From NCBI RefSeq assembly GCF_050320075.1, contig NZ_CP190018.1: a DNA stretch of 64,000 nucleotides. One strand, given 5' to 3'. The notes beneath the pieces were generated by a model that saw nothing but the letters and a program-made list of their open reading frames with translations, was not told where the DNA came from and made no database searches. Shown here piece after piece: positions 22,741-63,426 of this stretch; the first letter of the stretch is position 1, and each line of letters begins with the position of its first letter. The translations under genes were made by a program, and so were the position numbers. Origin of the DNA: Escherichia coli (GTDB taxonomy: Bacteria > Pseudomonadota > Gammaproteobacteria > Enterobacterales > Enterobacteriaceae).

Positions 22741-22751
22741 TATTCAATGCA

Positions 22752-33177: not shown

Positions 33178-33967
33178 CTTCGACTCCTTCCGGTTTAAAT
33201 GCGCGTGGAACAGTAATTTGATAATCCGGCTCCAGCCAGCCGCCGGGTATGATTTGCCGCTTTCCCGTACCTGTTTCTATACCGCTTTGATCAATATACT
33301 GAAAATAAGGGTGTCCATTACGCCGGGCAAGGTAAAGCATCACCCGGTTGGTTTTAACCGAATGGCTGGCGCGAAGCAGTGCCTGCAATTTGCGTGGGCT
33401 GAGAAGATTCAACCCCTGAAACAGAGCATCGGCATGTTCGAACGAGATTAACGAAGGAACGCCGCAGGCGATCTCATACGCGGCCAGTTCCGGAACACTG
33501 CCTGCTAACTGGCGGTCGCCAATTTTCAGTTCCGTAGTAAATGGCGTTACATCAGCGGTAAGGCCTGACGTATACAGCGTGACAAACGTTGCGGATTGTT
33601 CAAAGGCAGAAAACCATCCCGGCAGTTTGACGTAAGCCGGAAGCGCGAGCCAGACCTGCGGCTTACCCTGTTCGGTATAGTGCGCATGACCCTGAAGCGC
33701 AAGGCTGGTTAGCCCCGCCACCCGAACAGGCTTTTCCCACTGCGATTGCAGGCAGTAAACCGCATCCACCCAATCCGGTTCACGACCCGTCCGGCAGTAT
33801 ACGCCGTGAGCGATCCGCCTGAGCCAGCCATTCTTCACATAGAGATAAGAGAGCTTACGATCTATGCCGTTGCGGGTAAGCCATGACTGGAGCAGCACCT
33901 GGCCGGGTAGCGTGTGCTGCATCAGCCAGTTTAGATAGTTTGGCAACTGTCGCCTCTGAATAGACAT
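33164..33967 (-). CDS. AbiEi-family antitoxin / transcriptional regulator
   Basis: 267 aa, N-terminal winged-helix-like region; immediately upstream of and overlapping AbiEii. Confidence 0.8.
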   Translation of the reverse strand: MSIQRRQLPNYLNWLMQHTLPGQVLLQSWLTRNGIDRKLSYLYVKNGWLRRIAHGVYCRTGREPDWVDAVYCLQSQWEKPVRVAGLTSLALQGHAHYTEQGKPQVWLALPAYVKLPGWFSAFEQSATFVTLYTSGLTADVTPFTTELKIGDRQLAGSVPELAAYEIACGVPSLISFEHADALFQGLNLLSPRKLQALLRASHSVKTNRVMLYLARRNGHPYFQYIDQSGIETGTGKRQIIPGGWLEPDYQITVPRAFKPEGVEDGSA

Positions 33968-34261
33968 TAGTACAAATATTTAAACCAGTGTAGATTCAGG
34001 GATACGCCACAGCAAGAAATAGTTTACTTATTCCTCATTTTGTCGACTAAAAATCGACATTAAACAAAAAATTCAAACTTAATCACTTTCGGGAAAAATG
34101 TGACAAATATATGCTCGGACTGGTTGCGGGGAGCGTGTAACATGGATACAAATCAAAATTATTGCCAGCCTCACTGATGGATTACTGGTGTCAAGAGCCC
34201 CCCTTCGGGCATGAAACGGCTGGCTAATTCTGTACAGACTGTAATCTAAGGACGATAACGC

Positions 34262-37200
34262 ATGACATATCAGGCAATTTTCACTGGCTGGGATGATCTG
34301 ACGATTGAAGACCTTCTGGTCGCTTACCGGAAAGCAAAAGCCGATAGCTTCTTTGAGAATACATTTCCTGTTGCTATCAAATTTGCCGAGTATGAGCAGG
34401 AATTACTTGAAAACCTGCAAAAACTCTTAGATCTTTTGCAGAGCGAAGATGGATTCAGTAGCAATAAGAAGTTGATTGGCAAATTTCGATTGTTACCGAA
34501 AAAATTAACCACAAAGAAAAAACATGAATCCCAAAATGGACACGTCCACTTTTCTAATCCTAAACGAGCAGCCGACCATTTATTTAATAATTTTGATCTG
34601 ATACCAGAGTTTCGTATTATTGGTGACTTCCCGGTTGATAGTCACATTATCTCTGCACTATGGATTAACATGGTCGGGCATAAATTTGATGCCAGCTTAG
34701 ATAACTGTTGCTATGGCGCGCGGCTAAAGCGTATTCGTAATGATGAATTATTTAGCAATGAGCAGGATAATCCATTCCATATCAGTGCCGTGGGTTCTTT
34801 TAGCCCCTACTTCCAGCCCTACCAAAAATGGCGTGGTGATGGCTTAAAAGCTATACGTGACGAGTTGGAAAAAGATCGTGACATTATCGCCGCCTCACTG
34901 GATTTAAAAAGTTACTATCATTTTATTGATCCACTGGCTATAACCTCTGATGATCTCTATAACACACTAAACATAAAACTGACTGAGGATGAAAAAGCGT
35001 TTACTGCACAGTTAGCAGTATTCTTAAAGCACTGGTCTGACGGCGCAGCGGCATTTGGAAAGAAAATAGCGTACAAAACACCTGTTATTAATGGTGGTCT
35101 GGTCATTGGATTAACAGCCAGTCGGATCATTTCAAATATATTGCTACACCATTGGGATAAATTAGTCATTGAAAAACTATCACCAATTCACTACGGTCGT
35201 TATGTCGATGATATGTTCCTTGTAATACGCGATACAGGGACAATTACTAATAATCACGAATTTATGTTATTGCTGCAAGATAGGCTTGGCAATGATTGCG
35301 TTTATTTGAAAAACGAGCAAAAACAAATATGGCAAATACAGCAGGGCGAGCATTTCCAGGGTAAGACCACCATCCAGTTACAATCCGATAAGCAAAAACT
35401 TTTCGTGCTTCAAGGGAGGGCTGGAATAGACCTGCTCGACAGTATCGAAAAGGAGATCTACGAGCTTTCTAGTGAACACCGCTTGATGCCTTCACCGGAT
35501 CAACTGGAACACTCCACCGCAGCTAAAGTCCTTTCCGCTGCCGGTAGTGTAGGTGAAAATGCCGATACTCTGCGCCGTGCGGATGGATTAACCATTCGTC
35601 GTTTGGGCTGGTCACTGCAATTACGCTACGTTGAAACACTGGCACGAGATCTGCCTCCAAGTGAATGGAAAGAACAGCGGGAAGAGTTTTATCAGTTTGC
35701 CTACAACCATATTCTTAGGGCTGATAATCTATTTGCACATTTTAGTTATCTGCCAAGGCTGCTTGGCTTTGCTATCAGTATGAATGAATGGCAGCACGCG
35801 GAAAAAATTGTACTTAAAGCTTACGAATCCATCAACCTGTTGGCATCGGTGATTACTTCAGGTAAGGAAGTGAATATAAATGGTTGCAAAACTCGAGCAG
35901 TAAATGATCTTTGGCGCTGTATAAAAGGCACATTAAGCTGGCTATTTGTTGATGCAGCGACACGATATTACAGTCCTGACAGATTATTTCTTGATAAACG
36001 TTCAAAGAAAGAAGAGTGCCTTGCGGATACATTTTTTAATCATATTTCACAAAGTCTGACGAATCTAAAGGATTTACTGGATCTTCGCTTTGATTCAGCA
36101 GATTTTTATTTAAAAGCGCCATTGGTAGCTCGAGCTGATTTAGCAAAGGAACCTTATAAACAGATCGTAAAGAGTCAGTCGGCAGAAAAACTTGTTAATC
36201 AGCGTGATAGTAAAAAAGAAGTTAAAATACTGAAATTAATGAGCGACTCATCGCTTATTGATATTGACGTTATTAAGCTATTTTTGAAATCAACCAAGAA
36301 TACCCGACTGGAAAAAGTGGCTAAAGGAAATCGTAAGAACGAAAGTTACCTACCTTACATTTTCCCTACACGTCCTTTAACACCCGCTGAAATATCAGAA
36401 CTGGCCCCCGAATGTGTTGGATTACCCTCCACATCCGACAAAAAACCAGATGAGAGACCGTCCACCATTTGGGCAAAATATACTCAAGCATTACGCGGAG
36501 TATGGATCAAACCGACGTTGCTAGCATCGGAGCAGGACTCAGATGAAGCGACAAAAAAAGCTCGGCCTAAGAAATTCATTCATATTGGCACAGACAGGAA
36601 ACATAAAGTTGTCGTTGCGCTAACCAGCATTAAAACAGAGGAGGACGACTGGGCTAAAATGGCCTGCAATAAATCTAACTTGTCCCGTTCAAGGTACCAG
36701 CGGATTTCTGAACTGGTTAATGCAACATTGAAACTATCTCCTAAACCTGATTATGTTTTATTCCCTGAGCTTTCAATCCCGTTACGCTGGGTTAACAGTA
36801 TTGCTGATCGTTTGAGTTCGGCGGGTATCAGTCTAATTGCGGGAACAGAATACCGCCACTTAGACGATAATCAACTGAAGAGTGAGGCCGTACTTGTCCT
36901 TTCAGATAACAGACTCGGCTATCCAGCGAGTGTCAAAATATGGCAACCCAAGCTGGAACCCGCCGTAGGTGAAGATGAGGCATTATTTTCAATTTATGGT
37001 AAGTCTTGGGATTCGACACTTAATGTTAAACAACGTAAGCCGGTATATATTCATCACGGCGTCAATTTTGGCGTTATGATTTGCTCTGAACTCCAGAATA
37101 GTAAAGCGAGGATCCGTTTTCAGGGCGCACTCGATGCATTAATGGTATTGAGCTGGAATAAAGATCTAGATACGTTTGCATCGTTGATTGAATCAGCAGC

Positions 37201-37471
37201 GCTGGATATTCATGCCTATACTATTTTAGTGAATAACCGAAAATACGGCGATAGTCGCGTACGTTCCCCGGCAAAAGAACCCTTTATGCGTGATATTGCT
37301 CGTGTGAAGGGCGGTGATAATGACTTTGTGGTCGCTGCAACGCTGGATATCGACTCGTTAAGGGCATTTCAGAGCAGGGCAAAACGCTGGCCTAAAGGCG
37401 GCGATAAATTCAAACCGTTACCTGAAGGATTCCAGTTGGCAAAGAACCGCAAAAAGCTACCGCCAAAATAA
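34262..37471 (+). CDS. reverse transcriptase fused to a C-terminal nitrilase (carbon-nitrogen hydrolase) domain; DRT type 1 / UG1-like defence RT
   Basis: 1069 aa. RT motif A ASLDLKSYYHFID, motif B GGLVIGLTASRIISNILL, motif C YGRYVDDMFLV (YxDD). C-terminal domain has nitrilase catalytic-triad contexts FPELSIP (Glu) and GVMICSE (Cys). AT-rich relative to flanks. Confidence 0.85.
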   Translation: MTYQAIFTGWDDLTIEDLLVAYRKAKADSFFENTFPVAIKFAEYEQELLENLQKLLDLLQSEDGFSSNKKLIGKFRLLPKKLTTKKKHESQNGHVHFSNPKRAADHLFNNFDLIPEFRIIGDFPVDSHIISALWINMVGHKFDASLDNCCYGARLKRIRNDELFSNEQDNPFHISAVGSFSPYFQPYQKWRGDGLKAIRDELEKDRDIIAASLDLKSYYHFIDPLAITSDDLYNTLNIKLTEDEKAFTAQLAVFLKHWSDGAAAFGKKIAYKTPVINGGLVIGLTASRIISNILLHHWDKLVIEKLSPIHYGRYVDDMFLVIRDTGTITNNHEFMLLLQDRLGNDCVYLKNEQKQIWQIQQGEHFQGKTTIQLQSDKQKLFVLQGRAGIDLLDSIEKEIYELSSEHRLMPSPDQLEHSTAAKVLSAAGSVGENADTLRRADGLTIRRLGWSLQLRYVETLARDLPPSEWKEQREEFYQFAYNHILRADNLFAHFSYLPRLLGFAISMNEWQHAEKIVLKAYESINLLASVITSGKEVNINGCKTRAVNDLWRCIKGTLSWLFVDAATRYYSPDRLFLDKRSKKEECLADTFFNHISQSLTNLKDLLDLRFDSADFYLKAPLVARADLAKEPYKQIVKSQSAEKLVNQRDSKKEVKILKLMSDSSLIDIDVIKLFLKSTKNTRLEKVAKGNRKNESYLPYIFPTRPLTPAEISELAPECVGLPSTSDKKPDERPSTIWAKYTQALRGVWIKPTLLASEQDSDEATKKARPKKFIHIGTDRKHKVVVALTSIKTEEDDWAKMACNKSNLSRSRYQRISELVNATLKLSPKPDYVLFPELSIPLRWVNSIADRLSSAGISLIAGTEYRHLDDNQLKSEAVLVLSDNRLGYPASVKIWQPKLEPAVGEDEALFSIYGKSWDSTLNVKQRKPVYIHHGVNFGVMICSELQNSKARIRFQGALDALMVLSWNKDLDTFASLIESAALDIHAYTILVNNRKYGDSRVRSPAKEPFMRDIARVKGGDNDFVVAATLDIDSLRAFQSRAKRWPKGGDKFKPLPEGFQLAKNRKKLPPK

Positions 37472-37817
37472 GAAACTGATTTTCGCTATTAATAATCAGG
37501 GTATTTTTGCGTGAGATGTTGGTAAACATGATGTAGCCCTTGCCACTCATGACCAATCGCAGTATCTTTCTCCCGCGCCTGCAAAATCAGGCGTCGGGAT
37601 TAGCCTCCTGAAGAAATCTTATCGGCGACACATGACGCGCCAGCGTCTTTTTTTGTGTTGTTCGCACGGTTACATCTCAATGGTGGGCCGGGCGGGGGCG
37701 TCGCAAGACGCGCCAGTGTCCGATAAGGCTGGTAAGGCTAACCCTGCCCGGTTCCACCACCCGCGAGATTAGCCTCTCCGGTGGTGGCTTGAACACCCAC
37801 TTATCGGAGGTTGCCCT

Positions 37818-38410: not shown

Positions 38411-38637
38411 TTCAAGGTACTTTGATAGCAAAGGCAAGCAGGCTGGTTCAGTCCAGTGTTTCTCTTCTTGCATTTTCAGAAATGGGAGGCTGGGAGTCTA
38501 TCGAAATGGTTCGTCGATATGCTCACCTCGCGCCTAATCACCTTACCGAACACGCACGGCAAATAGACTCAGTCCTGAACCCATCGGTCCCAAATTTGTC
38601 CCAGTCAAAAAATAAGGAAGGTACTAATGATGTGTAA
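38410..38637 (+). pseudogene. 3' fragment of a tyrosine-recombinase (phage integrase) gene
   Basis: Encodes ...[35 protein letters not shown]..., the C-terminal catalytic-Tyr region of phage integrases, with no N-terminal domains. Confidence 0.7.
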
Positions 38638-38789
38638 CTTATTGATTTTAATGGTGCGATAAGAGGAATGAATATTGCAAGTTAACGCATTGATTTATAA
38701 TAGATTATTATATTCAAAAAATATAACTATACACATATCTATACACACTGCGCGCATCGCTTGTTTTTCGCACAATTAAAAATAAGAAA

Positions 38790-39080
38790 AAAGTTTTTTT
38801 TCGAAAGAACTGTTCACACTGTTCACCTTTCTGTTTTCTCCTTTTATTTCAGTTTGATAGGTGGTGAATAATGGGTGAATGGTGAACATTCGATTCTTCA
38901 CCTCCGGCATTCTGCCGGTGTGACTCATACCGGTGATTAATCCCCCGTACTGAAATCACACAGGGAGAAAAAAAGTTTTTTTTGATTTGATTGTTCACAC
39001 TGTTCACCTTTCATTTTTCTCTTTTAATTTCAGTGTGATAACGGGTGAATATACGGTGAAGGGTGAACAGTGGATTGTTC
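38790..39080. repeat. P4-type crr (cis replication region): two ~100-bp direct repeats, each with TGTTCACC / GGTGAACA iterons
   Basis: Units at about 38790-38890 and 38973-39075 are near-identical and each contains TGTTCACACTGTTCACC plus inverted GGTGAAYA copies. Confidence 0.8.
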
Positions 39081-39098
39081 ACCTTCGGGGAATTCAGG

Positions 39099-39126
39099 GA
39101 TAAAAAAAGACCGGCAGATGCCGGTC
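39099..39126 (-). terminator. rho-independent terminator downstream of alpha
   Basis: Hairpin GACCGGCA / TGCCGGTC with an adjacent T-run on the minus strand. Confidence 0.55.
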
Positions 39127-39142
39127 AGATGAGTCATGATGG

Positions 39143-41476
39143 TCAGGTTGTTGCAGGGTCGTCACATTTTGGCAGCCAGTCGCCGTAGCTTTCCTCTTTC
39201 AGCGTCAGGTTGGTCTGTATCCCCTGTTTGGTATGGCGCTTCTCGTAATTCAGTCCGTATTCCTTCAGCATCACCGGCAGCCCCAGCCCGAACATTTTCA
39301 GACTGAGTACATTCCGGTAGCCGTTTGCCTCCATGTAGGCCAGATAGGCGTGATAGAGGTATTTACGGTAATTACGCGGGATGATACTGGCGTTCCCCAT
39401 ATACATGCCGCTGGTCTGCGGCAGGGTTTCCAGATAGCCGATAAAATCAAACGTCGGGTCGGCATCCCGTTTGATGTTCAGCGCCTCGTCTGAGTTCTGC
39501 TGGGACTGAAGCAGTGACCGGGCGAGCATCGGGTCGCTGAACTTCTGCATCAGGTGACGCACGATGACCGCCAGCTCGCGGGTGATTTTGTCCTTAAGCT
39601 GCGGGTCGCGCTCCTGCGGGGCTATCTGTTCCGGGAAGTGAATAATCACCCGCCGGCGTGACACGCCGCCGCTGCGGTCGGTGAAGCGCATCGGGTTATT
39701 GTTCACGGCCAGAATTACCGCCGGGATATGCGTGGAGTATGCATCCCGGTATTTCGGGTCAACGGACACCGCATCGCCGCCGGTGATGGCCTTGAGTCCG
39801 GCACCGTCGCCGCTCCATTTTTCCTGGTCCGGCAGGCGTATCAGTGAGAAGCCAGTTAACGCGGCACGTTCACGCGGGGATTCCAGCGTCTCGATGGTGG
39901 CCGACGTGGCGTTATCCTCCCCGGCCAGCAGGGTGGCTATTTCGGCCATGATACTTTTGCCGCTGCCGCCGGGACCGGTCACCTCCAGAAAGAGCTGCCA
40001 GTCGTAGCGGTTTGCCAGCACCATAAACAGTGCGGCCAGAATCACGTCGCGTTTTTCCGCACGGCCACCGGCGGCACGGTCAAGCCAGCGCCAGAACGCG
40101 GGGGCGTGGGTCTCCAGCGTTTCACCGTCCACCGGCGGGGTGAAATCCACATCGCACAGGGTGCGCATCCAGTGTGACGGACTGTGCGGGTGGAACGTGC
40201 CGTTCTGCGTGTCGAGCACGCCGTTACGAAAGCCAATCAGGCGGCGGGAGGGGGCTTCCTGCTGCGGAATAATCAGCTTCAGGGTGTCCACCACGGAGGC
40301 CACCTTCCCGGAGGAGAACGGCGCGCGCAGACGCTGAAACAGCCCGGCCACATCCCGGGCAAAGTCCTGTGGTGGCAGCACCTTCCAGACACCATTTTCA
40401 TAACGGGACAGAAGCTGGCCGTTGGCATCGACCGCGAGCGCCTCGCCGTAATGCTCATAGATACGCATGGCCTTTTCGCTGGTACTCATGGCGGAAAACT
40501 CCGCTTCGCTCATGGTGTCGAACGGGCTTTCAGCCGGTGGCCGGATGGCATCATAAATGGCCTTACGGGTGGCTTCCCCGCCGTACTGCGTGAAGGCATC
40601 ATTCCAGTCACCGAAGACCGGCGGCAGGGCAACAACGCCCTCACACGCATCTGCGGCTGCGGCGGCTTTTTTCTGGCCGTCACCGCTGAGGTCACGGTCT
40701 GCGGCAAGGACAATCTGACAGGCCGGATGCTTCTGCCGGGCAAGGCTGGCCAGAGAAAGGAGGTTCACGGAAGAAAGCGCCACCATCACCGTTTCACCGG
40801 TCAGGTGATGTACGGTAAGTGCGGTCGCGTATCCCTCCGCTATCCACAGACGTTTTCCGGCCTGATTCTGTCCTTCAAGGGTGTGACAGGTGCCCCTGAC
40901 CTGTCCGCCTTTCAGGGTGCGCTTACGGCCGTCAGCACTGATTAACTGAAGGTTAACCAGTTCGCCGCTGTCGTCATACAGTGGCACCACAAGGTCACCG
41001 GCACGCCAGCTCACGCCACCGGCTCTGTGTGTGCCGGTCAGCATCCGGCATTCCCGGCCGGGAAAGCCCTTGCGGGTCAGGTAGGCGTTACCGGTTCCGG
41101 GACGGGTTTTCGCCATCAGGGTTTGTGCCAGTGCGGCGGCGTTCTTCCGGGCAGCGTCTGTTTCAGCACCGGCGGCAGCCGTCACTGCCGGGTCAGCCGG
41201 GGGCAGGCTGCCGGTCACGGCAGCCACCTTTGCTGCCGCGTCGGACGGGGAAACACCAAACACCTTTTCAACCAGTTTCAGGCCGTCACCGGCACCACAC
41301 TGATTGCAGTACCAGGTGCCGCGCCCCTCCCTGTCATCAAAACGGAAGCGGTCACTCCCGCCACAGACCGGACAGGGCTGATGACGGTTTTTCAGCACCT
41401 GAATCCCCAGCGCCGGGAGAATACGCGGCCAGTGGCCGAGCGCATGGCTGACGGTGGCGGTTACGTTCATTTTCAT
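39143..41476 (-). CDS. alpha: P4 alpha-type primase-helicase
   Basis: 777 aa; N-terminal zinc-binding primase motif (CPVCGGSDRFRFDD...WYCNQCGAGDG), central and C-terminal helicase region; iterons on both sides. Confidence 0.9.
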   Translation of the reverse strand: MKMNVTATVSHALGHWPRILPALGIQVLKNRHQPCPVCGGSDRFRFDDREGRGTWYCNQCGAGDGLKLVEKVFGVSPSDAAAKVAAVTGSLPPADPAVTAAAGAETDAARKNAAALAQTLMAKTRPGTGNAYLTRKGFPGRECRMLTGTHRAGGVSWRAGDLVVPLYDDSGELVNLQLISADGRKRTLKGGQVRGTCHTLEGQNQAGKRLWIAEGYATALTVHHLTGETVMVALSSVNLLSLASLARQKHPACQIVLAADRDLSGDGQKKAAAAADACEGVVALPPVFGDWNDAFTQYGGEATRKAIYDAIRPPAESPFDTMSEAEFSAMSTSEKAMRIYEHYGEALAVDANGQLLSRYENGVWKVLPPQDFARDVAGLFQRLRAPFSSGKVASVVDTLKLIIPQQEAPSRRLIGFRNGVLDTQNGTFHPHSPSHWMRTLCDVDFTPPVDGETLETHAPAFWRWLDRAAGGRAEKRDVILAALFMVLANRYDWQLFLEVTGPGGSGKSIMAEIATLLAGEDNATSATIETLESPRERAALTGFSLIRLPDQEKWSGDGAGLKAITGGDAVSVDPKYRDAYSTHIPAVILAVNNNPMRFTDRSGGVSRRRVIIHFPEQIAPQERDPQLKDKITRELAVIVRHLMQKFSDPMLARSLLQSQQNSDEALNIKRDADPTFDFIGYLETLPQTSGMYMGNASIIPRNYRKYLYHAYLAYMEANGYRNVLSLKMFGLGLPVMLKEYGLNYEKRHTKQGIQTNLTLKEESYGDWLPKCDDPATT

Positions 41477-41490
41477 GGTGTTGTTCTCCT

Positions 41491-41811
41491 TCAGTGCAGT
41501 ACCGGCGCTTTTATGTGACGGGCACAGAGTTCATCCATCACAACCAGCCCGAGAAAGGACAGCGACGGCGCGGCCTTCAGGGGGCCGGATTCCATTAAAT
41601 CTTCCAGCAGGGCACAGGCTATCTGACGCCCTTTTTCCTCACCGTGCTGGCGCAGATAAAAGCCTTCCAGCTCAGCGGCGATGGCCGCCTCCAGTGATTC
41701 AAGGGTGAGATGCGGGTAGCGGTGCTGACGTTCGCACACGGTCAGCCAGGCACAGGCGACAGCGCGACGGTAAAGGGCTGCGCGTAAGACGGGCGGTAAG
41801 GGTGTTTTCAT
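41491..41811 (-). CDS. P4-family conserved hypothetical protein (106 aa)
   Basis: ORF directly upstream of alpha in the left operon. Confidence 0.55.
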
Positions 41812-41946
41812 TTGTTTTCCTCCCTGTGACAGATGACTGCATTCCGTGCCGGTTGCATTAACTGATAAGGCATATCTGCGTCTCCTGAAGACGTGCGTAT
41901 CCCTGCGCGAATACGCACATTTAATTTTTCGGGTGTCGTTTTTTAA

Positions 41947-42402
41947 TTACAGATAATTGCGGTAACTGTTATCCGGGGTGATTTCCGGGTCAGGCTCCGT
42001 GCGGGGAATTTCCCGCCATTCCCGCGCCACCGGTGCCGCCCGGCTGGCCGGAACAGTGTCCTGCGGGTAAATATCCAGATATTTCTCCCGCCATTTCTGT
42101 AATTCCGGGTCTCCGGCCATTTCTTTCAGTACCGCATGCCGGTTTACGGGGCTGCGTTTAAACAGGTCAGGACGGTCACAGGTAAATTCCCGCAGAAAAC
42201 GCCCCAGCGGGATGTCTGTGGTGCGCCCGTCAGCGAGGATACGCACAAGGATACTGAATTTACGGCGGTACGGGTTCCAGACAATGTCCGGGCAGCGGTA
42301 CGGCATTTCCCACGGAATACCGTCTTCCAGAATGCCGACCACGGCCACATCGGGAAAACCGGCAGAACGGTAAATCTCACCGGGCTGGGGAAAATCAAAC
42401 AT
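41947..42402 (-). CDS. P4-family conserved hypothetical protein (151 aa; P4 orf151-like position)
   Basis: ORF in the alpha operon; size and position as in P4. Confidence 0.55.
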   Translation of the reverse strand: MFDFPQPGEIYRSAGFPDVAVVGILEDGIPWEMPYRCPDIVWNPYRRKFSILVRILADGRTTDIPLGRFLREFTCDRPDLFKRSPVNRHAVLKEMAGDPELQKWREKYLDIYPQDTVPASRAAPVAREWREIPRTEPDPEITPDNSYRNYL

Positions 42403-42682
42403 GCGTCCTGTCTCCCCGGTCTTTCTGCTGGGCGAGAAAATCGCGGCACAGGCCTTTGGCTTTCAGTTCATTCAGCACAAAATCAATATCTTCATTCAGG
42501 TAGCTGAAAATATGCGGAATGTAGAGCTGATGCAGGCCGGAGAGTTCACGGTGAATCAAATCACCCCCAACAAACCGGGATACGGCGCTGGCGCGGTTGA
42601 GCTTATGGTAAGCCTCAATGCTGAGGTGTTCACGGGCGTCATGACGCGCTGAGACGGTCTGAGGGGCTTTTTTATTACGCAC
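42395..42682 (-). CDS. P4-family small protein with probable GTG start (95 aa; epsilon-like position)
   Basis: GGAGG RBS 6 nt upstream of GTG at 42682; ORF ends overlapping the orf151-like start; the 177-aa ORF in the track is probably an over-extension. Confidence 0.4.
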
Positions 42683-42875
42683 GGGACACCTCCACCACCG
42701 GCAGACGGGCAGCAAGGGAGAGCACATAGTCACGGACAAGGGAACGGCGGGCGCTGCGTTCATCACCGGCGACGGTGCGAAGCATACAGATACGGGGATG
42801 ACGATCTGCGCGACGGACAGCCGCAAACACAAAGACAAATTCAGGGTGTGAGGTGGTAAGGGTTGTAGCCATGAT
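42675..42875 (-). CDS. P4-family small hypothetical protein (66 aa, [26 protein letters not shown]...)
   Basis: Short ORF immediately downstream of the immunity-RNA region; stop overlaps the next start. Confidence 0.4.
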
Positions 42876-42883
42876 GGCAGCCT

Positions 42884-43136
42884 CCTTGAAGTAACAGTTA
42901 CAGCTACCACTGGAGTTCCTACGCTCATGGGTGGTAGCCCGGACGGGGGTAGGAATACCGGCCTTCAAGGAAACCGGCCAGCCCGAAGGCTGCCCCGCCC
43001 GGACCACCATTATCTGACAGAGGCTACGGTTTAAAAACCACAGCCAGAAAAACAGGTGTGCCGAAGCAACGACGTAAAAAAAGACGCATGGCGCGTCATA
43101 TGTCGCCTTGAAGTAACTCGGGTTCCTACGCCCGGC
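42884..43136 (-). ncRNA. P4-type RNA immunity region (CI-RNA-like seqB flanked by complementary seqA / seqC-like repeats)
   Basis: Direct repeats CCTTGAAGTAAC...GTTCCTACGC at 42884-42924 and 43106-43136, and between them (42949-42971) GGTAGGAATACCGGCCTTCAAGG, complementary to both; in the untranslated leader of the left operon. Confidence 0.5.
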
Positions 43137-43225
43137 TGCCGATTTTGCGGCAGCGGAAAAACTATATCCGCAAATGCCGGAAAAAGGCAAGCCAGAAAAA
43201 GGGACTTTTTGCAGAACAGGCATCA

Positions 43226-43492
43226 TCATGCGTCATACCCCCGTTGGCGTCCGGCAATGCGGCCGGCCATCCATGCGGTGACTTCAGAGTGCAGCCAGGC
43301 CACATTTTTACCGCCAAGACTCACCTGCGGCGGAAATTCCCCCTTACGGATGAGTTCATAGATGGTCGAGCGTGACAGGCCGCACAGGTGCATCACTTCC
43401 GGCAGACGTAAAAAACGCTCCTGCGTGATGTCCGGCAGCGGCATCAGTGGCGTCACAGGGGCGGGAGACGGGGAAGAAAAAACAGCTTGCAT
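43226..43492 (-). CDS. alpA: AlpA-family phage regulatory protein (small MerR-like HTH)
   Basis: [50 protein letters not shown] is the AlpA signature; true start may be the internal Met (43444). Confidence 0.85.
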
Positions 43493-43769
43493 CGGGCTAC
43501 CTCGTTAATGTCCATACAGCACCGGATAAGTCCGTCCGGCTTCTGGTAGCGCTTTATTTTGTGAATATTTTCAGCAGACGCAACAGGGGGAATTTGTTCC
43601 GGCAACCTTACAATGGCTGTGTGTTTTTTATCCATCTGGACTGGAAGGGTCTCAAAGGGTTCTGAAGGACCTGGAATTTTTTATAGTGAAATACAAATTG
43701 TTTTTTCTTATTTATTTCAGTGAATTAATAAAAATAAACAGTGATAAACAGCATAAAAAGCCCATCAAC

Positions 43770-43880
43770 GGGTGAACAGTGGTGAACAGACGGTGAACAG
43801 TCATTACTGCGATTGTTCACCCTTTAACTTACTGTATTACTTATCTTTTTTCTTATGGTGAACAGAGGTGAACAGTAAAA
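43770..43880. repeat. P4-type origin of replication: six GGTGAACA / TGTTCACC iterons
   Basis: GGTGAACAGTGGTGAACAGACGGTGAACAG (43771-43800), TGTTCACC (43815-43822), GGTGAACAGAGGTGAACAG (43858-43876), within AT-rich DNA between alpA and sid. Confidence 0.8.
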
Positions 43881-44043
43881 TATAAAAAAACAAACAGTAA
43901 GCCGGTTTTTCCTGCGACCTTTTCCTGGCTTGCCGGTCTGAGGATGAGTCTCCTGTGTCAGGGCTGGCACATCTGCAATGCGTCGTGTTGCTGTCCGGTG
44001 TACGTCACAATTTTCTTAACCTGAAGTGACGAGGAGCCGGAAA

Positions 44044-44778
44044 ATGTCTGACCACACTATCCCTGAATATCTGCAACCCGCACTGGCACAACTGGAAAAG
44101 GCCAGAGCCGCCCATCTTGAGAACGCCCGCCTGATGGATGAGACCGTCACGGCCATTGAACGGGCAGAGCAGGAAAAAAATGCGCTGGCGCAGGCCGACG
44201 GAAACGACGCTGACGACTGGCGCACGGCCTTTCGTGCAGCCGGTGGTGTCCTGAGCGACGAGCTGAAACAGCGCCACATTGAGCGCGTGGCACGCCGGGA
44301 GCTGGTACAGGAATATGACAATCTGGCCGTGGTGCTGAATTTCGAACGTGAACGCCTGAAAGGGGCGTGTGACAGCACGGCCACCGCCTACCGGAAGGCA
44401 CATCATCACCTTCTGAGTCTGTATGCAGAGCATGAGCTGGAACACGCCCTGAATGAAACCTGTGAGGCGCTTGTCCGGGCAATGCATCTGAGCATTCTGG
44501 TACAGGAAAATCCGCTCGCCAACACCACCGGCCATCAGGGCTACGTCGCACCCGATAAGGCTGTCATGCAGCAGGTGAAATCATCGCTGGAACAGAAAAT
44601 TAAACAGATGCAAATCAGCCTCAGCGGCGAGCCGGTTCTCCGGCTGACCGGACTGTCAGCGGCAACACTTCCGCACATGGATTATGAGGTGGCAGGCACA
44701 CCGGCACAGCGCAAGGTGTGGCAGGACAAAATAGACCAGCAGGGAGCAGAGCTTAAGGCCAGAGGACTGCTGTCATGA
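44044..44778 (+). CDS. sid: P4 Sid-type capsid size determination (external scaffold) protein
   Basis: 244 aa from the internal Met (MSDHTIPEYLQPALAQLEKARAAH...), coiled-coil rich; followed by delta and psu. Confidence 0.85.
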   Translation: MSDHTIPEYLQPALAQLEKARAAHLENARLMDETVTAIERAEQEKNALAQADGNDADDWRTAFRAAGGVLSDELKQRHIERVARRELVQEYDNLAVVLNFERERLKGACDSTATAYRKAHHHLLSLYAEHELEHALNETCEALVRAMHLSILVQENPLANTTGHQGYVAPDKAVMQQVKSSLEQKIKQMQISLSGEPVLRLTGLSAATLPHMDYEVAGTPAQRKVWQDKIDQQGAELKARGLLS

Positions 44779-45275
44779 TTTACTGCCCGTCGTGTGGACA
44801 TGTTGCTCACACCCGTCGCGCACATTTCATGGACGATGGCACCAAGATAATGATTGCACAGTGCCGGAATATTTATTGCTCTGCGACATTTGAAGCGAGT
44901 GAAAGCTTTTTCTCTGACAGTAAAGATTCAGGAATGGAATACATTTCAGGCAAACAGAGATACCGCGATTCACTGACGTCAGCCTCCGGCAGTATGAAAC
45001 GCCCGAAAAGAATGCTTGTTACCGGATATTGTTGTCGGAGATGTAAAGGCCTTGCACTGTCAAGAACATCGCGGCGTCTGTCTCAGGAAGTCACCGAGCG
45101 TTTTTATGTGTGCACGGATCGGGGCTGTGGTCTGGTGTTTAAAACGCTTCAGACCATCAACCGTTTCATTGTCCGCCCGGTCACGCCGGACGAACTGGCA
45201 GAACGCCTGCATGAAAAACAGGAACTGCCGCCAGTACGGTTAAAAACACAATCATATTCGCTGCGTCTGGAATGA
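44775..45275 (+). CDS. delta: P4 Delta-type late transcription activator (tandem Ogr-like zinc fingers)
   Basis: 166 aa; two CxxC...CxxC zinc-finger units (MIYCPSCGH...CRNIYC and YCCRRCKG...CTDRGC). Confidence 0.9.
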   Translation: MIYCPSCGHVAHTRRAHFMDDGTKIMIAQCRNIYCSATFEASESFFSDSKDSGMEYISGKQRYRDSLTSASGSMKRPKRMLVTGYCCRRCKGLALSRTSRRLSQEVTERFYVCTDRGCGLVFKTLQTINRFIVRPVTPDELAERLHEKQELPPVRLKTQSYSLRLE

Positions 45276-45348
45276 GGGCTGCCGGTTAACACCGGCCGTC
45301 GCCGCACACCGTATTTTTATTCTTCAGCATGATGAGAAAGAGATAACG

Positions 45349-45921
45349 ATGGAAAGCACAGCCTTACAGCAGGCCTTTGACACCTGTCAGAATAACAAAG
45401 CAGCATGGCTGCAACGCAAAAATGAGCTGGCAGCGGCCGAACAGGAATATCTGCGGCTTCTGTCAGGAGAAGGTAGAAACGTCAGTCGCCTGGACGAATT
45501 ACGCAATATTATCGAAGTCAGAAAATGGCAGGTGAATCAGGCTGCCGGTCGTTATATTCGTTCGCATGAAGCCGTTCAGCACATCAGCATCCGCGACCGG
45601 CTGAATGATTTTATGCAGCAGCACGGCACAGCACTGGCGGCCGCACTGGCACCGGAGCTGATGGGCTACAGTGAGCTGACGGCCATTGCCCGAAACTGTG
45701 CCATACAGCGTGCCACAGATGCCCTGCGTGAAGCCCTTCTGTCCTGGCTTGCGAAGGGGGAAAAAATTAATTATTCCGCACAGGATAGCGACATTTTAAC
45801 GACTATCGGATTCAGGCCTGACGCGGCTTCTGTGGATGACAGCCGTGAAAAATTCACCCCTGCGCAGAACATGATTTTTTCGCGTAAAAGTGCGCAACTG
45901 GCATCACGTCAGTCTGTGTAA
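45349..45921 (+). CDS. psu: P4 Psu-type polarity suppression / capsid decoration protein
   Basis: 190 aa; last gene of the sid-delta-psu operon, followed by cos. Confidence 0.85.
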   Translation: MESTALQQAFDTCQNNKAAWLQRKNELAAAEQEYLRLLSGEGRNVSRLDELRNIIEVRKWQVNQAAGRYIRSHEAVQHISIRDRLNDFMQQHGTALAAALAPELMGYSELTAIARNCAIQRATDALREALLSWLAKGEKINYSAQDSDILTTIGFRPDAASVDDSREKFTPAQNMIFSRKSAQLASRQSV

Positions 45922-46085
45922 AATTCCCCGAAAATCCGCCTGTTTTTACTGAAAAAAGCCATGCATCGATAAGGTGCATGGCTTTGCATGCGTTTTCCTG
46001 CCTCATTTTCTGCAAACCGCACCATTCCCGGCGCGGTCTGAGCGTGTCAGTGCAACTGCATTAAAACCGCCCCGCAAAGCGGGCG

Positions 46086-46122: not shown

Positions 46123-47517
46123 TTATGATTTCATTTTATCTGCAATATCTTCTAAGGAATCAAAGAATGCTTTGACAAAGTTGTCTTTATTAACAGTAGT
46201 AAAGTTTTGATTGTAAAATCCTACACATGCAGAAAAAATTGCTCTGCAAGTTAGCTCATTATATTTAGATGAATATAATGGTTCGACTCCACGATACACG
46301 GACCAAGAACCATGAGCTATATCAGACCTAGTCTTATACATTTCCTGAGCCACTCTAGCCCATTTTTTTTCATCTTGATAATAAATAGAAACTAATGAAG
46401 AAACACGACTTACGAAGTTCTTTGTTGTAGATGAATCCTTTTTTTCGCTACTTAGACTAACCAGCCGTTCAAGAGCCGTTGTTAATTTTACTATACGAGA
46501 ACTTTCATCCTTATCCTGTTGTGCGCTACTAAATAAATAGATAGCATCAATTAGCCTGTCTGCAATTACAGAGTTTTCATGAGGTTCTATCGCCAACTCT
46601 ATTAACCGAGAAAGAACTAACCCTAAGTCAGATTTGTAATCATCTTCAAACTTATTCCAAAACTCACCGCTATTGGCTATAGTCCCTTTAGTTGAGTAAT
46701 GATAGTTAAACATTTCGTTTGGTTTCTTGGAAAGATAAAAGCCGTCATAATTTGGGTAAGGATCTGTTGATATACTTAAAAAGTATGGGGAGATATTATA
46801 GTGCACACCAAATAGCTGTAGTATCCCAACCACAAAACATGCAATATTTTTAGCGATTCTCTGCCTACTTAACTTAGAGCGTTTGCTAACAGGGATTTTT
46901 AGGTAGTGTTTATAATGAAATTTATGAGAAGAACAAAATTTCTTAGCTAAATCAAGTTGTTGCTCAGTAAAATCATCACTAATAGTTAAGTGCATTTTTT
47001 CTGCCGATATAATATCAACTCGGCCAATAGACATTATATCTCGTTCCAACCCGTGAGCTAAAATAGGATAATAAAAATCCTCTTCAGACATTTCTCTCCT
47101 TGTTAGTTTTAATGTTTTATTTAGGAGGATAGTACATCCACTCCTGTCGCAACTGCCGTTCTCAACCCAAATATGCATAAACAATATTTTCTTAAGATTA
47201 CTTAAAAATTCATCGGTAGTAACTAGCATTTCTAAGCGATTTGATTTTATAAATCTAGCCGAAATAGCATATAACTTCTCATAAGAGGCATATGATAGAT
47301 GAATTTGAGTTCTAGAAAGATCTGTTCTTCCTTTTATTAGTTCATATGGTGCATCTATGGTCATTCCCAATGAACCAAAATTACCATTATATTCTTTTTT
47401 GTAAAATTCCATAAAATTAGATGAGGATGTTAACTCTTTATTTATTCTAACAGCCTCATCAAGAATAAATTTAAAATCTTTAACGTCTTCCAAACTGGCA
47501 CTCATCATTTTCACCAT
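46123..47517 (-). CDS. uncharacterised 464-aa protein in the P4 psu-int hotspot; C-terminal HEPN-like Rx4H motif; candidate anti-phage effector
   Basis: Strongly AT-rich versus the GC-rich flanking P4 genes; sits between cos/psu and int; C-terminal region contains RSDIAHG (R-x4-H-G, as in HEPN RNases); no Walker or other obvious motif; start overlaps the int 3' end. Confidence 0.7.
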   Translation of the reverse strand: MVKMMSASLEDVKDFKFILDEAVRINKELTSSSNFMEFYKKEYNGNFGSLGMTIDAPYELIKGRTDLSRTQIHLSYASYEKLYAISARFIKSNRLEMLVTTDEFLSNLKKILFMHIWVENGSCDRSGCTILLNKTLKLTRREMSEEDFYYPILAHGLERDIMSIGRVDIISAEKMHLTISDDFTEQQLDLAKKFCSSHKFHYKHYLKIPVSKRSKLSRQRIAKNIACFVVGILQLFGVHYNISPYFLSISTDPYPNYDGFYLSKKPNEMFNYHYSTKGTIANSGEFWNKFEDDYKSDLGLVLSRLIELAIEPHENSVIADRLIDAIYLFSSAQQDKDESSRIVKLTTALERLVSLSSEKKDSSTTKNFVSRVSSLVSIYYQDEKKWARVAQEMYKTRSDIAHGSWSVYRGVEPLYSSKYNELTCRAIFSACVGFYNQNFTTVNKDNFVKAFFDSLEDIADKMKS

Positions 47518-48896: not shown

Positions 48897-49126
48897 TGTA
48901 GCACCAATCATAACTATCTGTTTTAGCAAGCATTAACCGCATTCACCAAGCAATAGTTGATGGCACAAACAGAAAGTTGATGCATGATGTTGTCATGTGT
49001 ATGTCACAAATACGGCACAACGATCTTCAAACATGTAGCCACTCAGCATAGAAGAGCACAAAGCCTTGCAATCCAGTGCAAAGCTTTGTGTGTCTCAGTT
49101 TTGTTTCATCTGTAATTATGTGTTCG

Positions 49127-49429
49127 CTACGATGCAAGAATCCATACCGATAAGCATCCGATAATTGGGAAAGAAAAATCCAACAAACTTCCCACACCCC
49201 ACGCGCGCGGATCAAAACCGCCCCACCACGGCATATTCATACGCTTGCCATGCCCGAACATTTCAATCCAGCGATATTCTGCCTGGGTGTGTTCACGCGC
49301 AATGAAGAACGTACAACCGGCTATCGCACCGTAAGCCCAGTTTCCGGTAAAAAGACCAATCAGTAGCTGCGCAGCCACAGCACAAAGTGCATGAAGTAAG
49401 GGTGTTATATCCATTTTCATCCTACCCAA
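49127..49429 (-). CDS. hypothetical small membrane protein (100 aa) between the att core and oac
   Basis: ORF with two hydrophobic segments; function unknown. Confidence 0.4.
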   Translation of the reverse strand: MGRMKMDITPLLHALCAVAAQLLIGLFTGNWAYGAIAGCTFFIAREHTQAEYRWIEMFGHGKRMNMPWWGGFDPRAWGVGSLLDFSFPIIGCLSVWILAS

Positions 49430-49885
49430 TAAAACGGGGCGCTCGGCCCATTAATATTATTTAGACGCAAGCGCTGCCTCAATTGCAGATAACATTTGTC
49501 TTAATTCTGCGTTTTCTTCTTCCAGTGCTGTTATTCTGTCGTCTGACTCTCTGGCTACCTGAACAAGCAAGCCAGTAACACCAGAATAATCTACAGTGTA
49601 ATACCGTTCACCTTCTTCACCTAAAGGATGACAAAATCACATAAATAATTTAAAAATCATAGCATTAGATTACTTAATGATTAAATAATAGACTGCGAAA
49701 CGCGACAAAACACAACATATCCAGTCACTATGAATCAACTACTTAGATGGTATTAGTGACCTGTAACAGAGTATTAGCGCAAGGTGATTTTTTGTCTTCT
49801 TGCGCTAATTTTTTGTCAACGCACTGGGTTAGTTGAATTTACAACCATGCTCAGTTTGGTGATCTCTTTAGGTCGATTGTTATGG

Positions 49886-50926
49886 TTATGCTCTGCTTGA
49901 TTCAGTGATTTTGGAATCCTGCATTTTAGTAATCATACCCATAATTTTATGCCTAAGCTTTTCCATTGGGTTTTCGATTAGATAAAAACTTACCGCCCCA
50001 ACTAAGATTGATGCTACCATCGTTGCTATATACATATAGAAACTGATTCCTACGTACCACACACCCATTGCTAGAATCAGGAAGTGCCATAGGTATATAG
50101 AGAAGCTCCATTTACCAATGTAAGACATTAACGGTGTTGACAGAGCCCAAGCAAATACACCTTCTCCATAGCTCATTAGCAGAACAATGAGTCCAAATAT
50201 TGGCGCATAGAAAATAAATTTGTTGAGAACCCATCCATCAGTAAACCCACCAGTTAACTTCCACATAACTTTAGGCAGTGCAATAAGCATTGATACAATA
50301 AAGAACAGGAAGGCTATATCAGACAACTCTTGACCAATTTTAAGGAAATTATCGTGATAGAGAAATGCTGCAATCATTCCGCAAGCAAACAGTGGGAAAT
50401 ACCACATCACCATTCCGCCATACGCACTATCCATCGCAGGGTACAATCCCTGTAGCAATACAGCCAGTGCGAAAATAAGGAATGCCGCTGCTTTTCCATT
50501 GTACACTTTTTGAATTGCGACACCAGCATACGCAAAGAATGGAAGTATGAAGTAGAATTTATACTCAATTGGTATTGTCCAGAAATGAAGCACGGCCTCT
50601 TTCATCGTTATGATTGAGATTGCCGTATTCAAATCAAAATACCCAAAATATGAATACACGAGAACAGCTATTGCGAACACCGGAAGGATTCTCATTGTTC
50701 TTCCAAGGAAATAACTTAAAAGAGACCGCCAGGAAAATCCGGTAGAAATAAATCTACTGGTTAGCAAAAATGCGCTGAGAACAAAGAATATCCAAACGCC
50801 AAACTGTGAACTTCCACCAAGCATAACCTCATACTCATGAAAATATATTCCTGTAGCGTGGGCTATTATTACAAGGAATACCGCTATTGCCCTTAGTCCA
50901 TCAAGAGACTTGATTTTACCTTTCAT
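49886..50926 (-). CDS. acyltransferase-3 family O-antigen acetyltransferase (Oac-like serotype-conversion enzyme)
   Basis: Multi-pass membrane protein with N-terminal LDGLRAIAVFLVIIAH (acyltransferase-3 signature); AT-rich; directly downstream of the tailspike gene; start probably the internal Met. Confidence 0.8.
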   Translation of the reverse strand: MKGKIKSLDGLRAIAVFLVIIAHATGIYFHEYEVMLGGSSQFGVWIFFVLSAFLLTSRFISTGFSWRSLLSYFLGRTMRILPVFAIAVLVYSYFGYFDLNTAISIITMKEAVLHFWTIPIEYKFYFILPFFAYAGVAIQKVYNGKAAAFLIFALAVLLQGLYPAMDSAYGGMVMWYFPLFACGMIAAFLYHDNFLKIGQELSDIAFLFFIVSMLIALPKVMWKLTGGFTDGWVLNKFIFYAPIFGLIVLLMSYGEGVFAWALSTPLMSYIGKWSFSIYLWHFLILAMGVWYVGISFYMYIATMVASILVGAVSFYLIENPMEKLRHKIMGMITKMQDSKITESSRA

Positions 50927-51009
50927 TTCTTTCCCAGATATGGAGTGAACATCTGCGAAAATGTAGCACATTTCAAGGTAAACAAGAAGCGCATCCATGC
51001 GCATTTTCA

Positions 51010-52929
51010 TCACCCTGCCTTGGTGTATGTCCAGTTAAATGTTGTTGTTCCCTGGCTTGTGATGGTTACAATCCTTCCTGTCACTGTAAATGATATCAAC
51101 CCTCCTGACTTAAGCGGAGTTAAAGTAAGTGTTGTTCCGTCCCACATGGCAAGCTGAAGCGAAGAGAAATTTGTTCCACTGCTTTCTGCCCAAACGCTTA
51201 TCAGGTACATCCCTTGGCTATTTGGCAGTTCAAACAACGTAGTTGCTACGTTAGCTGCAACAGCCTGAGTTCCTTTCGCTGTGTACACTGCTGGCAACTG
51301 ATTACCTGCAGAGCTTCGTGATTCAACATATGAGCCTGAAGTTTGCGTCCCAGTTAATGAGCAGTCAGTAAATACTCCATTCCCTGTGCTGTAAGTTGAT
51401 ATTACAGGAGTCCCACCAGTCGGAGCCTTAAACCGGCATCCCTCAGCAATTATTTTTGCTGTTGAGTCTGTCAGCAATGTGTTTGGGTATCCAGAGCCAG
51501 TGTAGGTTATTGATTCGCTATCAAGGAAGCTATCGGTACTTGATTTTATGTTAACAATGCTTGTGCCTGTTGCAAAGATAAATGCTGCTGTCCCACTCCC
51601 CGTTGTTTGCATTGAGTTTCCATGCCCGGCCAATCCTGATATATGGGCAATAGTATCATTAAGTTTTATATACGACGCAGTAATTCCATTTGTATTTTTT
51701 ATTATATTAGACTCACCATCATACCCTGTAATAGTAAGACACTTACATCCAGAAAAATATAACCCTGAGGAATCAAATGTATATTGCGACCCGTCAACTG
51801 TGATCTGGTCTCCTGCACAGTTTATTAGCTGAGGAGACAGGCAATTTACAACATACCATGCCTGTGCTGCATCCAGCACATAACATGTATCCCACTGTAT
51901 TGTCGTTCCGTTCGCCTTATAGAAACCATGCGCAACTCTCCTCGCCCATACCTGGGTATACTTTGTTAGGTAATTTCCAGAGTCATCATATATGGCCCAC
52001 CATGCACCATCAACCTCAACATTTTTAATGTGCATAACGCCTGGTGAAGTAGTTCCTCCATCAATTAGAATGCCAATTTTACCATCATTGCCAGTAGGTG
52101 ATGTAGGGCGTCCTCCATCGTAAAAAATATAGACATTTTCAATATTTATTGTATTAAACGCTGCGTGGTAATGGAAACAAGCTATATTTCCTATTACTGC
52201 TATGAAAGTTTCCGGCCTATTTATGTTGCTGTTTGTTTCGCCATTTATTGTGCAGTTTGAATTCATCTCTATCGTTGCATTTACGAAGTAAGTTCCAGAT
52301 GTCAATAATACATTCCGCCCTGTATTAATTGCGGCCTGTATGCCTGCATAGTCAAGAGACTGAGTTAGTGATGTTACGAATGGATAAACAGCCTGCGCCG
52401 CTGATAGTGTGGAGAATTTCTCGCTGAGTGGATGCAGAGTTCCGTCAGCTGTTGCACCGAAATCCTTGGCTGAAATGAAGTTGGTATTTTTATCATGTTG
52501 AGTTAAAGCTATTGAGCCGATATATGGCTGCTTAACTGCAACTAGTGCATCTCCCATTCCATCAGCATCGCTTTCTAACTGCTGCTTAAACTGATCAGGG
52601 TCATACTTCAGCACATTAGGAAAATAGAACTGCTGTGCACCATACGCATCATATACAGCCATAGAATGGCCTTGCACAGTTACGAACTTGGCAATCTGTC
52701 CGTTATATACAGGGTAACCAGCGGCGTTAATGATGATTGGTTGCGAAACAGGAACGTGAGAGCCGTCTTCGTTCTCTACATAAACCTGAATCTGGTTTTC
52801 TGGATTTACTGGGTCCGTGTCAATTTTACCGATATAAATTTTGCCATTGGCAACCGCTTTAAAAGAACGCGCCATAGTGAAGAGTTGCGAAGGCATGCTT
52901 ACCACAACATTTGCGGTGATATCTGACAT
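51010..52929 (-). CDS. tailspike protein: P22-type head-binding N-terminal domain with a different, AT-rich receptor-binding body
   Basis: From the internal Met: [43 protein letters not shown]... closely resembles the P22 gp9 N-terminus; remainder is Ser/Thr/Gly/Asn-rich and AT-rich. Confidence 0.85.
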
Positions 52930-53017
52930 TTCATTGCTCCAGACGAATGATATGATGCAACCATGATGTGATTGCATACCGAAATGGTACTATTGAGTAT
53001 TTATCCAGTAGGTTACG

Positions 53018-53311
53018 ATGCCATTCCACCCAACTGGTGAGGCATCAAGGATGTACAGCAAATACGACGAGGCGCAGTTTCACTTGAGACTTCCGCATGA
53101 ACTCCACGCGAAAATTAAGCAGCGTGCGAAGATGAATAACAGGTCGCTGAACTCAGAGATAATTGCAGCGATTGAGGAATCATTGGATAAACAAAGCTCT
53201 GCATCAGTTTACATTGACGATGCAGAGCGTATGGCAGAACAACAATCTGATATGGTTAAGAAAATTGTCTTTGATACGCTCAAGAAGCTATATAAAAAAG
53301 ACAGCAGATAA
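53018..53311 (+). CDS. Mnt/Arc-like ribbon-helix-helix repressor
   Basis: Resembles P22 Mnt (…RSLNSEIIAAIEESL…DAERMAEQQSDMVKKIVFDTLKKLYKK); located between gene-16-like and tailspike as in the P22 immI region; start may be the internal Met (53051). Confidence 0.75.
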   Translation: MPFHPTGEASRMYSKYDEAQFHLRLPHELHAKIKQRAKMNNRSLNSEIIAAIEESLDKQSSASVYIDDAERMAEQQSDMVKKIVFDTLKKLYKKDSR

Positions 53312-53400
53312 CCATCCGTTACGGAGGATTTATGCACAGAGATATGCTGAATATTGCGTTCTACATATTTGGTTTTTGCACGTTCCTGGTGTTTGCGAAG

Positions 53401-57126: not shown

Positions 57127-57135
57127 GATTACCCC

Positions 57136-57828: not shown

Positions 57829-57830
57829 GG

Positions 57831-60552: not shown

Positions 60553-60560
60553 TTATTCAC

Positions 60561-62517: not shown

Positions 62518-62528
62518 TTATCTTTTCC

Positions 62529-63413: not shown

Positions 63414-63426
63414 TGATTACTCCTGG

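Follow-up and report, generated by a model that had tools for sequence, protein, structure and literature searches.

A P4-like satellite prophage of Escherichia coli with a probable RNA immunity module predicted to be heteroimmune to P4

The immunity locus and the element that carries it

The DNA analysed here is a stretch of 64,000 nucleotides from Escherichia coli (RefSeq assembly GCF_050320075.1, contig NZ_CP190018.1), referred to below as the window. From about 38.6 to 48.7 kb it is occupied by a P4-like satellite prophage, the left operon of which lies on the minus strand. Window positions 38787-46085 match P4 4291-11624 at 97.6%, and the ORFs of the left operon have the same sizes as in P4: the alpha primase-helicase (777 aa; 39143-41476), cnr/orf106 (106 aa; 41491-41811), orf151 (151 aa; 41947-42402), and epsilon (95 aa; 42395-42682), all on the minus strand, in the P4 order, and placed so that they would come under the control of the module described below. 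The P4 size is also kept by orf88/vis (88 aa; 43226-43492, minus strand), which encodes an AlpA-family helix-turn-helix protein, lies upstream of the left-operon promoter PLE, and is the gene called alpA in the preliminary description of this DNA, and by sid, delta, and psu, which are present as well. P4-like sequence occurs at four places in this genome, and the window as a whole matches the chromosome of E. coli strain YZLc1-3 at 99.9%.

The element differs from P4 in its integrase, which has 401 aa rather than the 440 aa of the P4 enzyme, and in its cargo. A 464-aa ORF (46123-47517, minus strand) lies between psu/cos and the integrase gene, a position that is a known cargo hotspot of P4-like satellites; RefSeq annotates a HEPN-domain protein over 46123-47508, and PADLOC gave no match for this protein. 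No tRNA gene was found anywhere in the 64-kb window, and so the element, unlike P4, is not at a tRNA site. At the left junction (38434-38790), matches in other genomes begin at window position 38634 or 38444, so that the junction adjoins or includes a C-terminal integrase fragment (38434-38637) belonging to a decayed neighbouring element. Adjoining the integrase end of the satellite, positions 49058-64000 hold prophage genes (tailspike/head-binding protein, O-acetylase, Arc, and DNA-ejection proteins), and the part of this region that was checked, 49058-52000, is 100% identical to Escherichia phage vB_EcoP-611R6. Elsewhere in the window, a full-length match to the Rfam family IS009 (RF02111; 187.8 bits) at 22546-22746 on the minus strand is unrelated to the immunity module.

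The preliminary description had drawn attention to direct repeats flanking their own complement between the AlpA-family gene and the small ORFs, and these are found where it had placed them. On the plus strand, CCTTGAAGTAAC is present at 42884-42895 and again at 43106-43117 (12/12 identical), and ACTGGAGTTCCTACGC at 42909-42924 is repeated as ACTCGGGTTCCTACGC at 43116-43131 (88% match), this second repeat ending in GTTCCTACGC. Between the repeats, at 42949-42970, lies GTAGGAATACCGGCCTTCAAGG, which is complementary to both repeat halves. The bipartite motif GTAGGAA-N(5-35)-CTTCAAGG that they define occurs at only three sites in the 64-kb window when both strands are considered, the minus strand holding two of them and the plus strand the third, and it did not occur in any of 100 dinucleotide-preserving shuffles (three observed versus zero expected). 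The repeats at 42884-43136 are real and are not the product of chance.

Read along the minus strand, the parts of the locus follow one another in the order PLE, seqA, t1, the CI (C4) RNA gene with seqB, and seqC on the ribosome-binding site of kil. A consensus scan identified a PLE-like sigma-70 promoter for the left-operon leader at 43161-43190, with a -35 element TTGCCT (43185-43190), an 18-nt spacer, and a -10 element TATAGT (43161-43166); it is the sole promoter-like match in 42300-43700 and is identical to P4 at 30/30 nt. The leader RNA that contains seqA (43077-43154) is of the isrK type, giving a full-length match to Rfam RF01394 (73.4 bits; gathering score, 50), and the c4-a1b1 family (RF03163) is matched at 43115-43167 with 49.6 bits, also above its gathering score. 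The leader is laid out as a first hairpin, a second hairpin with box a in its loop, a single-stranded box b, and then t1. The upstream target, seqA, spans 43106-43129, with box a (GUAGGAA) at 43123-43129 and box b (CUUCAAGG) at 43106-43113. Directly after seqA, a terminator scan found the intrinsic terminator GACGCGCCAUGCGUC followed by seven U residues (43076-43097), which we take to be the counterpart of P4 t1. This t1-like stretch is kept in P4 and in every locus fetched by the t1 pattern (see below). The efficiency of t1 in P4 is said, from work by Briani and colleagues in 2000, to depend on CI and seqA.

The CI RNA gene itself (42927-43014, minus strand) matches the Rfam C4 antisense RNA family RF01695 over model positions 1-87 of 87 (86.1 bits, E = 1.5e-15; gathering score, 45). 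Structure prediction gives the RNA the fold of its family, a 17-bp closing stem around two hairpins, with a folding energy of -53.3 kcal/mol (z = -5.0). The two boxes of seqB (42949-42970) lie in unpaired parts of this predicted fold: box b' (CCUUGAAG, 42963-42970) forms the loop of hairpin 2, and box a' (UUCCUAC, 42949-42955) occupies the unpaired 3' junction. The downstream target, seqC (42884-42922), repeats box a (GUAGGAA) at 42916-42922 and box b (CUUCAAGG) at 42884-42891, and the final GG of its box b opens the Shine-Dalgarno sequence GGAGG of kil; the arrangement at the kil start, read from the sequence, is CUUCAAGGAGG-N9-AUG. The kil homologue (65 aa; 42675-42872, minus strand) is the first translated gene after seqC, is nearly identical to that of P4, and is labelled "host cell division inhibitor Icd-like" in RefSeq.

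The repeats had also been assigned to an untranslated region, but the region is not wholly non-coding, since an open frame of 184 codons spans 42884-43136. This eta-like frame (184 aa; 42675-43229, minus strand) starts with MMMP and reads across seqA, the CI RNA gene, and seqC into kil, with which it shares its end. Its P4 counterpart has 199 aa and the same MMMP start, and a net deletion of 45 nt relative to P4 leaves the frame open. RefSeq places an "ash family protein" CDS over both of the CI/C4 RNA genes in the window, at 42897-43229 (minus strand) and at 37608-37772 (plus strand), one of them as a pseudogene, and P4 records carry a 137-aa "cI gene product/transcriptional repressor" at the CI RNA gene. 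The "ash family protein" and P4 cI protein calls look like legacy protein labels over an RNA gene.

Complementarity and covariation of seqA, seqB, and seqC

The predicted duplexes of seqB with its own targets have energies of -34.4 kcal/mol (seqA) and -30.5 kcal/mol (seqC). Shuffled targets gave about -16 to -18 +/- 3.6 kcal/mol and were as good as the cognate target in 0/1000 cases for seqA and 3/1000 cases for seqC.

To follow this pairing across related elements, 22 sequences comprising the leader, the CI RNA, and 62 nt downstream were aligned with MAFFT. They came from a one-genome-per-species scan with the t1 terminator pattern, from six divergent E. coli variants, and from P4. The scan, the yield of which is limited by its strict anchor pattern, returned 14 loci, 13 of which had isrK and C4 matches; the remaining one, from an "Alistipes" metagenome-assembled genome (L009), contained the pattern without a C4 or isrK match and was dropped. 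The 22 loci represent Escherichia, Klebsiella, Raoultella, Buttiauxella, Xenorhabdus, and Photorhabdus. One of the loci (L004; URND01000141.1, positions 5-232) comes from an "uncultured Clostridiales" metagenome-assembled genome, and its isrK-type leader is identical to that of the window while its C4 RNA is one base off; this contig is probably enterobacterial DNA that was binned in error. Another, L006, from an Enterobacterales metagenome-assembled genome, has a second C4 match (8230-8317, plus strand; 58.6 bits) that lacks an upstream isrK-type leader and probably belongs to some other C4 arrangement, such as that of phage anti-immunity modules.

All three sites covary. Over the 15 pairs between seqA and seqB, 99.4% of the alignment cells were paired, 12/15 pairs had changed on both sides, and the covariation score was 0.86, against 0.05-0.14 in slid controls in which the partners were shifted by 1-3 columns. 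The corresponding values for the 15 pairs between seqB and seqC were 97.4% of cells paired, 12/15 pairs changed on both sides, and a score of 0.71 (slid controls, 0.03-0.14); several of the unpaired seqB-seqC cells stem from a single locus (L008), in which the unedited MAFFT alignment misregisters seqC by one column. For the 45 pairs of the CI scaffold and leader hairpins, 95.1% of cells were paired (31-42% in slid controls), compensatory changes were seen in 26/45, and the score was 0.45, with the CI closing stem contributing compensatory changes in 11/17 pairs across the loci. The pairing scheme was read off the sequence of the window, which inflates the percentages paired relative to the slid controls but leaves the counts of compensatory changes unbiased. 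Direct results of this analysis are the anatomy of the module, its assignment to RNA families, the fold predicted for the CI RNA, and the complementarity of the three sites with its three-way covariation.

The code formed by the two boxes is diverse. Among the 22 loci, which were picked for diversity so that allele counts do not stand for frequencies, box a has 9 alleles and box b has 11, occurring in 18 combinations. The alleles mix: GUAGGAA is found with four different b boxes, and CUUAUUGG is found with three different a boxes. Xenorhabdus beddingii DSM 4764 carries two P4-type modules (L011 and L012) with the same box a, UUGAGAC, and with box b sequences ACACGG and GUUAUCGG, respectively, which hints that one differing box may suffice for the coexistence of two elements.

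Divergence from P4 and a second module in the window

A query of 951 nt aligned to P4 8093-9088 with 94.2% identity over 94% of its length, so the region corresponds to the cI/seqA/seqB/seqC region of P4, as the preliminary description had anticipated. The two loci agree in the order of their parts, in the promoter, t1, and the CI scaffold, and in the downstream operon; in both, seqC lies on the kil ribosome-binding site and the eta frame overlaps the module. The substitutions and indels relative to P4 are concentrated between 43127 (box a of seqA) and 42887 (box b of seqC); outside these limits, there are 12 mismatches in 420 nt upstream and 3 in 276 nt downstream, so that the flanks are 97-99% identical. 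What differs between the two limits is the sequence of both boxes and the spacer between t1 and CI, which cannot be aligned to that of P4 and is 45 nt shorter (net). Box a is GUGAGAA in P4 and GUAGGAA in this element, and box b is UUCACAGG in P4 and CUUCAAGG here. In total, 6/15 box positions differ from P4, and they have changed coordinately in seqA, seqB, and seqC, with the result that complementarity stays perfect. From the sequence comparison, it looks as if an immunity cassette with seqA and seqC as its limits has been swapped.

The predicted duplexes between the two systems are weaker than the cognate ones. This element's seqB is predicted to pair with the P4 targets at -23.9 and -23.2 kcal/mol, and P4 seqB with the targets of this element at -20.0 and -17.2 kcal/mol; the cross-duplexes of -17 to -24 kcal/mol, although not zero, thus fall 7-18 kcal/mol short of the cognate range of -30 to -35 kcal/mol. 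The specificity of P4 itself would call for seqB boxes that are identical to those of P4 or fully complementary to P4 seqA and seqC, and the seqB boxes of this element are neither. Because of the six coordinated box changes and the weaker cross-duplexes, the element is predicted to be heteroimmune to P4. The P4-like retronphage phiR73 is said, from work by Sabbattini and colleagues in 1996, to be heteroimmune to P4 as well. It shares with this element the principle that a P4-like element differs from P4 in specificity through altered complementary sequences; its cargo is retron Ec73, whereas that of the present element is the HEPN-domain protein. The allele described here is not rare in E. coli: the same 261-nt segment, at an identity of at least 99%, was found in 131/5,426 complete E. 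coli genomes, and some relative of it was found in 1,170/5,426.

The decayed neighbouring element carries a second immunity module with a different code, at 37540-37807 on the plus strand. Its parts are a promoter (37540-37568; promoter scan), an isrK-type leader (37575-37653; Rfam isrK, 68.8 bits) containing a seqA of the form UUAGCCU..CUUAUCGG (37600-37625), a terminator (37634-37654; terminator scan), a C4 RNA (37676-37764; Rfam C4, 71.1 bits) with seqB at 37720-37741, and seqC (37769-37807), seqA and seqC being recognised by their bipartite motif. The motif UUAGCCU..CUUAUCGG occurs at exactly three sites in the 64-kb window. Cross-duplexes between the two modules were predicted at -12.9 and -15.6 kcal/mol for seqA and at -22.4 and -23.5 kcal/mol for seqC, values near the shuffled background, and by this modelling the two modules are orthogonal, each with an independent code.

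The element to which the second module belongs lacks alpha, sid, delta, and psu. Downstream of the module are a 156-aa ORF, for which PADLOC gave no match, a helix-turn-helix pseudogene, and an integrase fragment. The segment 37480-38640 (1.16 kb), which comprises the module and these downstream remnants, is present at a coverage of at least 80% in 801/5,426 complete E. coli genomes. Upstream of the module, 32257-37471 holds defence cargo: the toxin-antitoxin pair AbiEii/AbiEi (32257-33967, minus strand) is followed by a gene for a 1069-aa reverse transcriptase (34262-37471, plus strand), the latter a full-length match to the PADLOC system RT_UG5-nitrilase (DRT).

Proposed mechanism, alternatives, and significance

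All of the sequence-level features that define P4-type CI RNA immunity are present at 42884-43133 on the minus strand, and this segment is very probably the lysogenic immunity module of the P4-like satellite, predicted to be heteroimmune to P4. The matches to the C4 and isrK families, the identity to P4, and the covarying seqA, seqB, and seqC bear out the P4 immunity arrangement suggested in the preliminary description, and the intact sequence suggests that the module may, as was also suggested there, keep functional immunity. In P4, processing of an untranslated leader releases the CI RNA, and its pairing with seqA and seqC leads to premature termination, which keeps the replication genes off in the lysogen (PMC4825925, PMC3632133); the leader is processed by RNase P and PNPase, and termination is partly Rho dependent (PMC4825925, PMC5499578).

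By analogy with the P4 literature, on which our proposals for RNA expression, processing, and termination are modelled, the module would work as follows. Constitutive transcription from PLE (43161-43190) would yield a leader with seqA, t1, the CI RNA gene, and seqC on the kil ribosome-binding site, from which the CI RNA would be cut out, as in P4. In the processed RNA, a hairpin loop would expose b' and an unpaired junction would expose a'; together these make up seqB, which would bind the two boxes of each target, seqA and seqC, in nascent leader transcripts. Pairing at seqC would presumably mask the kil Shine-Dalgarno sequence, so that the leader would remain untranslated and transcription would stop before epsilon, cnr, and alpha, while pairing at seqA may promote termination at t1; a Rho-dependent termination step (timm) may also take part, as the P4 literature suggests. 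The genes for replication and helper derepression would then be silent both in the lysogen and in any homoimmune satellite that superinfects it.

The same RNA family also operates in a different kind of element. The c4 system of P1 and P7 shares with this locus the RNA family (RF01695, RF03163), two-box recognition through a' and b', and the placing of a target at the ribosome-binding site of a gene of the Icd-like kind, and the P4 CI RNA and the P1/P7 C4 RNA are both listed as RNase P substrates, processing by RNase P being shared by the family (PMC5499578). The locus might then be a c4-icd-ant anti-immunity module of the P1/P7/N15 type, in which the C4 RNA controls the antirepressor of a full temperate phage. 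Both RNA families are matched, the C4 RNA and its a/b targets do lie upstream of an icd-like gene, as the annotation of kil has it, and the distant DNA matches in phiKO2, D6, and lambdoid phages hit genes that are icd-like or encode antirepressors. In P1 and P7, however, c4 controls the ant antirepressor of a plasmid prophage, whereas the operon here would serve replication of a satellite and derepression of its helper. An ant gene is absent from the locus, as is any P1- or N15-like genome, the genes downstream are kil-epsilon-orf151-cnr-alpha of P4 at about 98% identity, and the complete P4 gene set (sid, delta, psu, and alpha) is present. We rejected a P1-type ant module, which we regard as very improbable, because the gene content is that of P4: the RNA mechanism is the same, but the host element is another. 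A reading that assigns no RNA-level role to the repeats, taking them as part of a coding sequence (that of the "ash family protein" or the eta frame) or as chance, is more improbable still, even though a 184-codon frame is open over the entire segment and both the RefSeq CDS and the 137-aa P4 product have been annotated as proteins. The boxes vary freely across loci while Watson-Crick complementarity is kept at three sites, which argues for selection on RNA pairing and not on a peptide, and the published immunity factor of P4 is an RNA (PMC4825925). Chance or protein-coding repeats were rejected on the basis of the covariation at three sites and of the motif count, which was three where none was expected.

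A further possibility concerns the leader rather than the module as a whole. The t1-ended, isrK-type leader might be a stable trans-acting RNA, either a sponge for CI or, like IsrK in Gifsy-1, a translational activator of the read-through transcript, in which case the repeats would serve both activation and repression. From end to end, and above the gathering score, the seqA leader and its terminator fit the family model (RF01394) of IsrK from Salmonella Gifsy-1, and an intrinsic terminator lies directly after seqA. IsrK is moreover a structural homologue of P4 seqA that acts in trans (PMC4825925), and a transposon screen of Salmonella Typhi found a requirement for IsrK-like elements in P4-like prophages (PMC3632133). 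Against this, the antQ, anrP, and orf45 genes that adjoin isrK in the lambdoid prophage Gifsy-1 are absent, the neighbours here being P4 genes, and P4 genetics give seqA a cis target role (summarised in PMC4825925); whereas IsrK of Gifsy-1 is a trans activator, the leader here would be a cis target of CI. We consider a trans-acting leader unlikely, and it would add to the explanation by CI RNA immunity rather than replace it.

The P4-type immunity found here is a kind of feature that is already known, and it is the recognition code that differs from that of P4. The result is of value mainly for annotation, in that a segment labelled "ash family protein" in RefSeq can be described as an RNA gene with two targets. 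For the biology of these elements, the module would be a natural example of antisense-RNA immunity changing its specificity, with the three sites altered together in a backbone that is nearly unchanged. Mutual exclusion among P4-like satellites could be predicted by typing the two boxes; the main text of a large genomic survey of P4-like elements (PMC8628076) does not contain the word "RNA," and immunity-RNA typing is therefore not covered there.

A broader reading is that seqA-seqC is an exchangeable two-box "barcode" under diversifying selection and that the module of the decayed neighbour has been kept because its RNA still acts. It draws on the free mixing of the boxes, their match at all three sites, and the placement of the cassette in an otherwise P4-identical backbone, and we put it forward as a tentative suggestion that may well prove wrong. 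If it is true, the RNA of the decayed neighbour might silence a downstream gene, as happens in antisense toxin-antitoxin pairs, or might exclude incoming homoimmune satellites, and satellites with orthogonal codes could live side by side in a single chromosome without repressing one another, a freedom that the two modules described here have.
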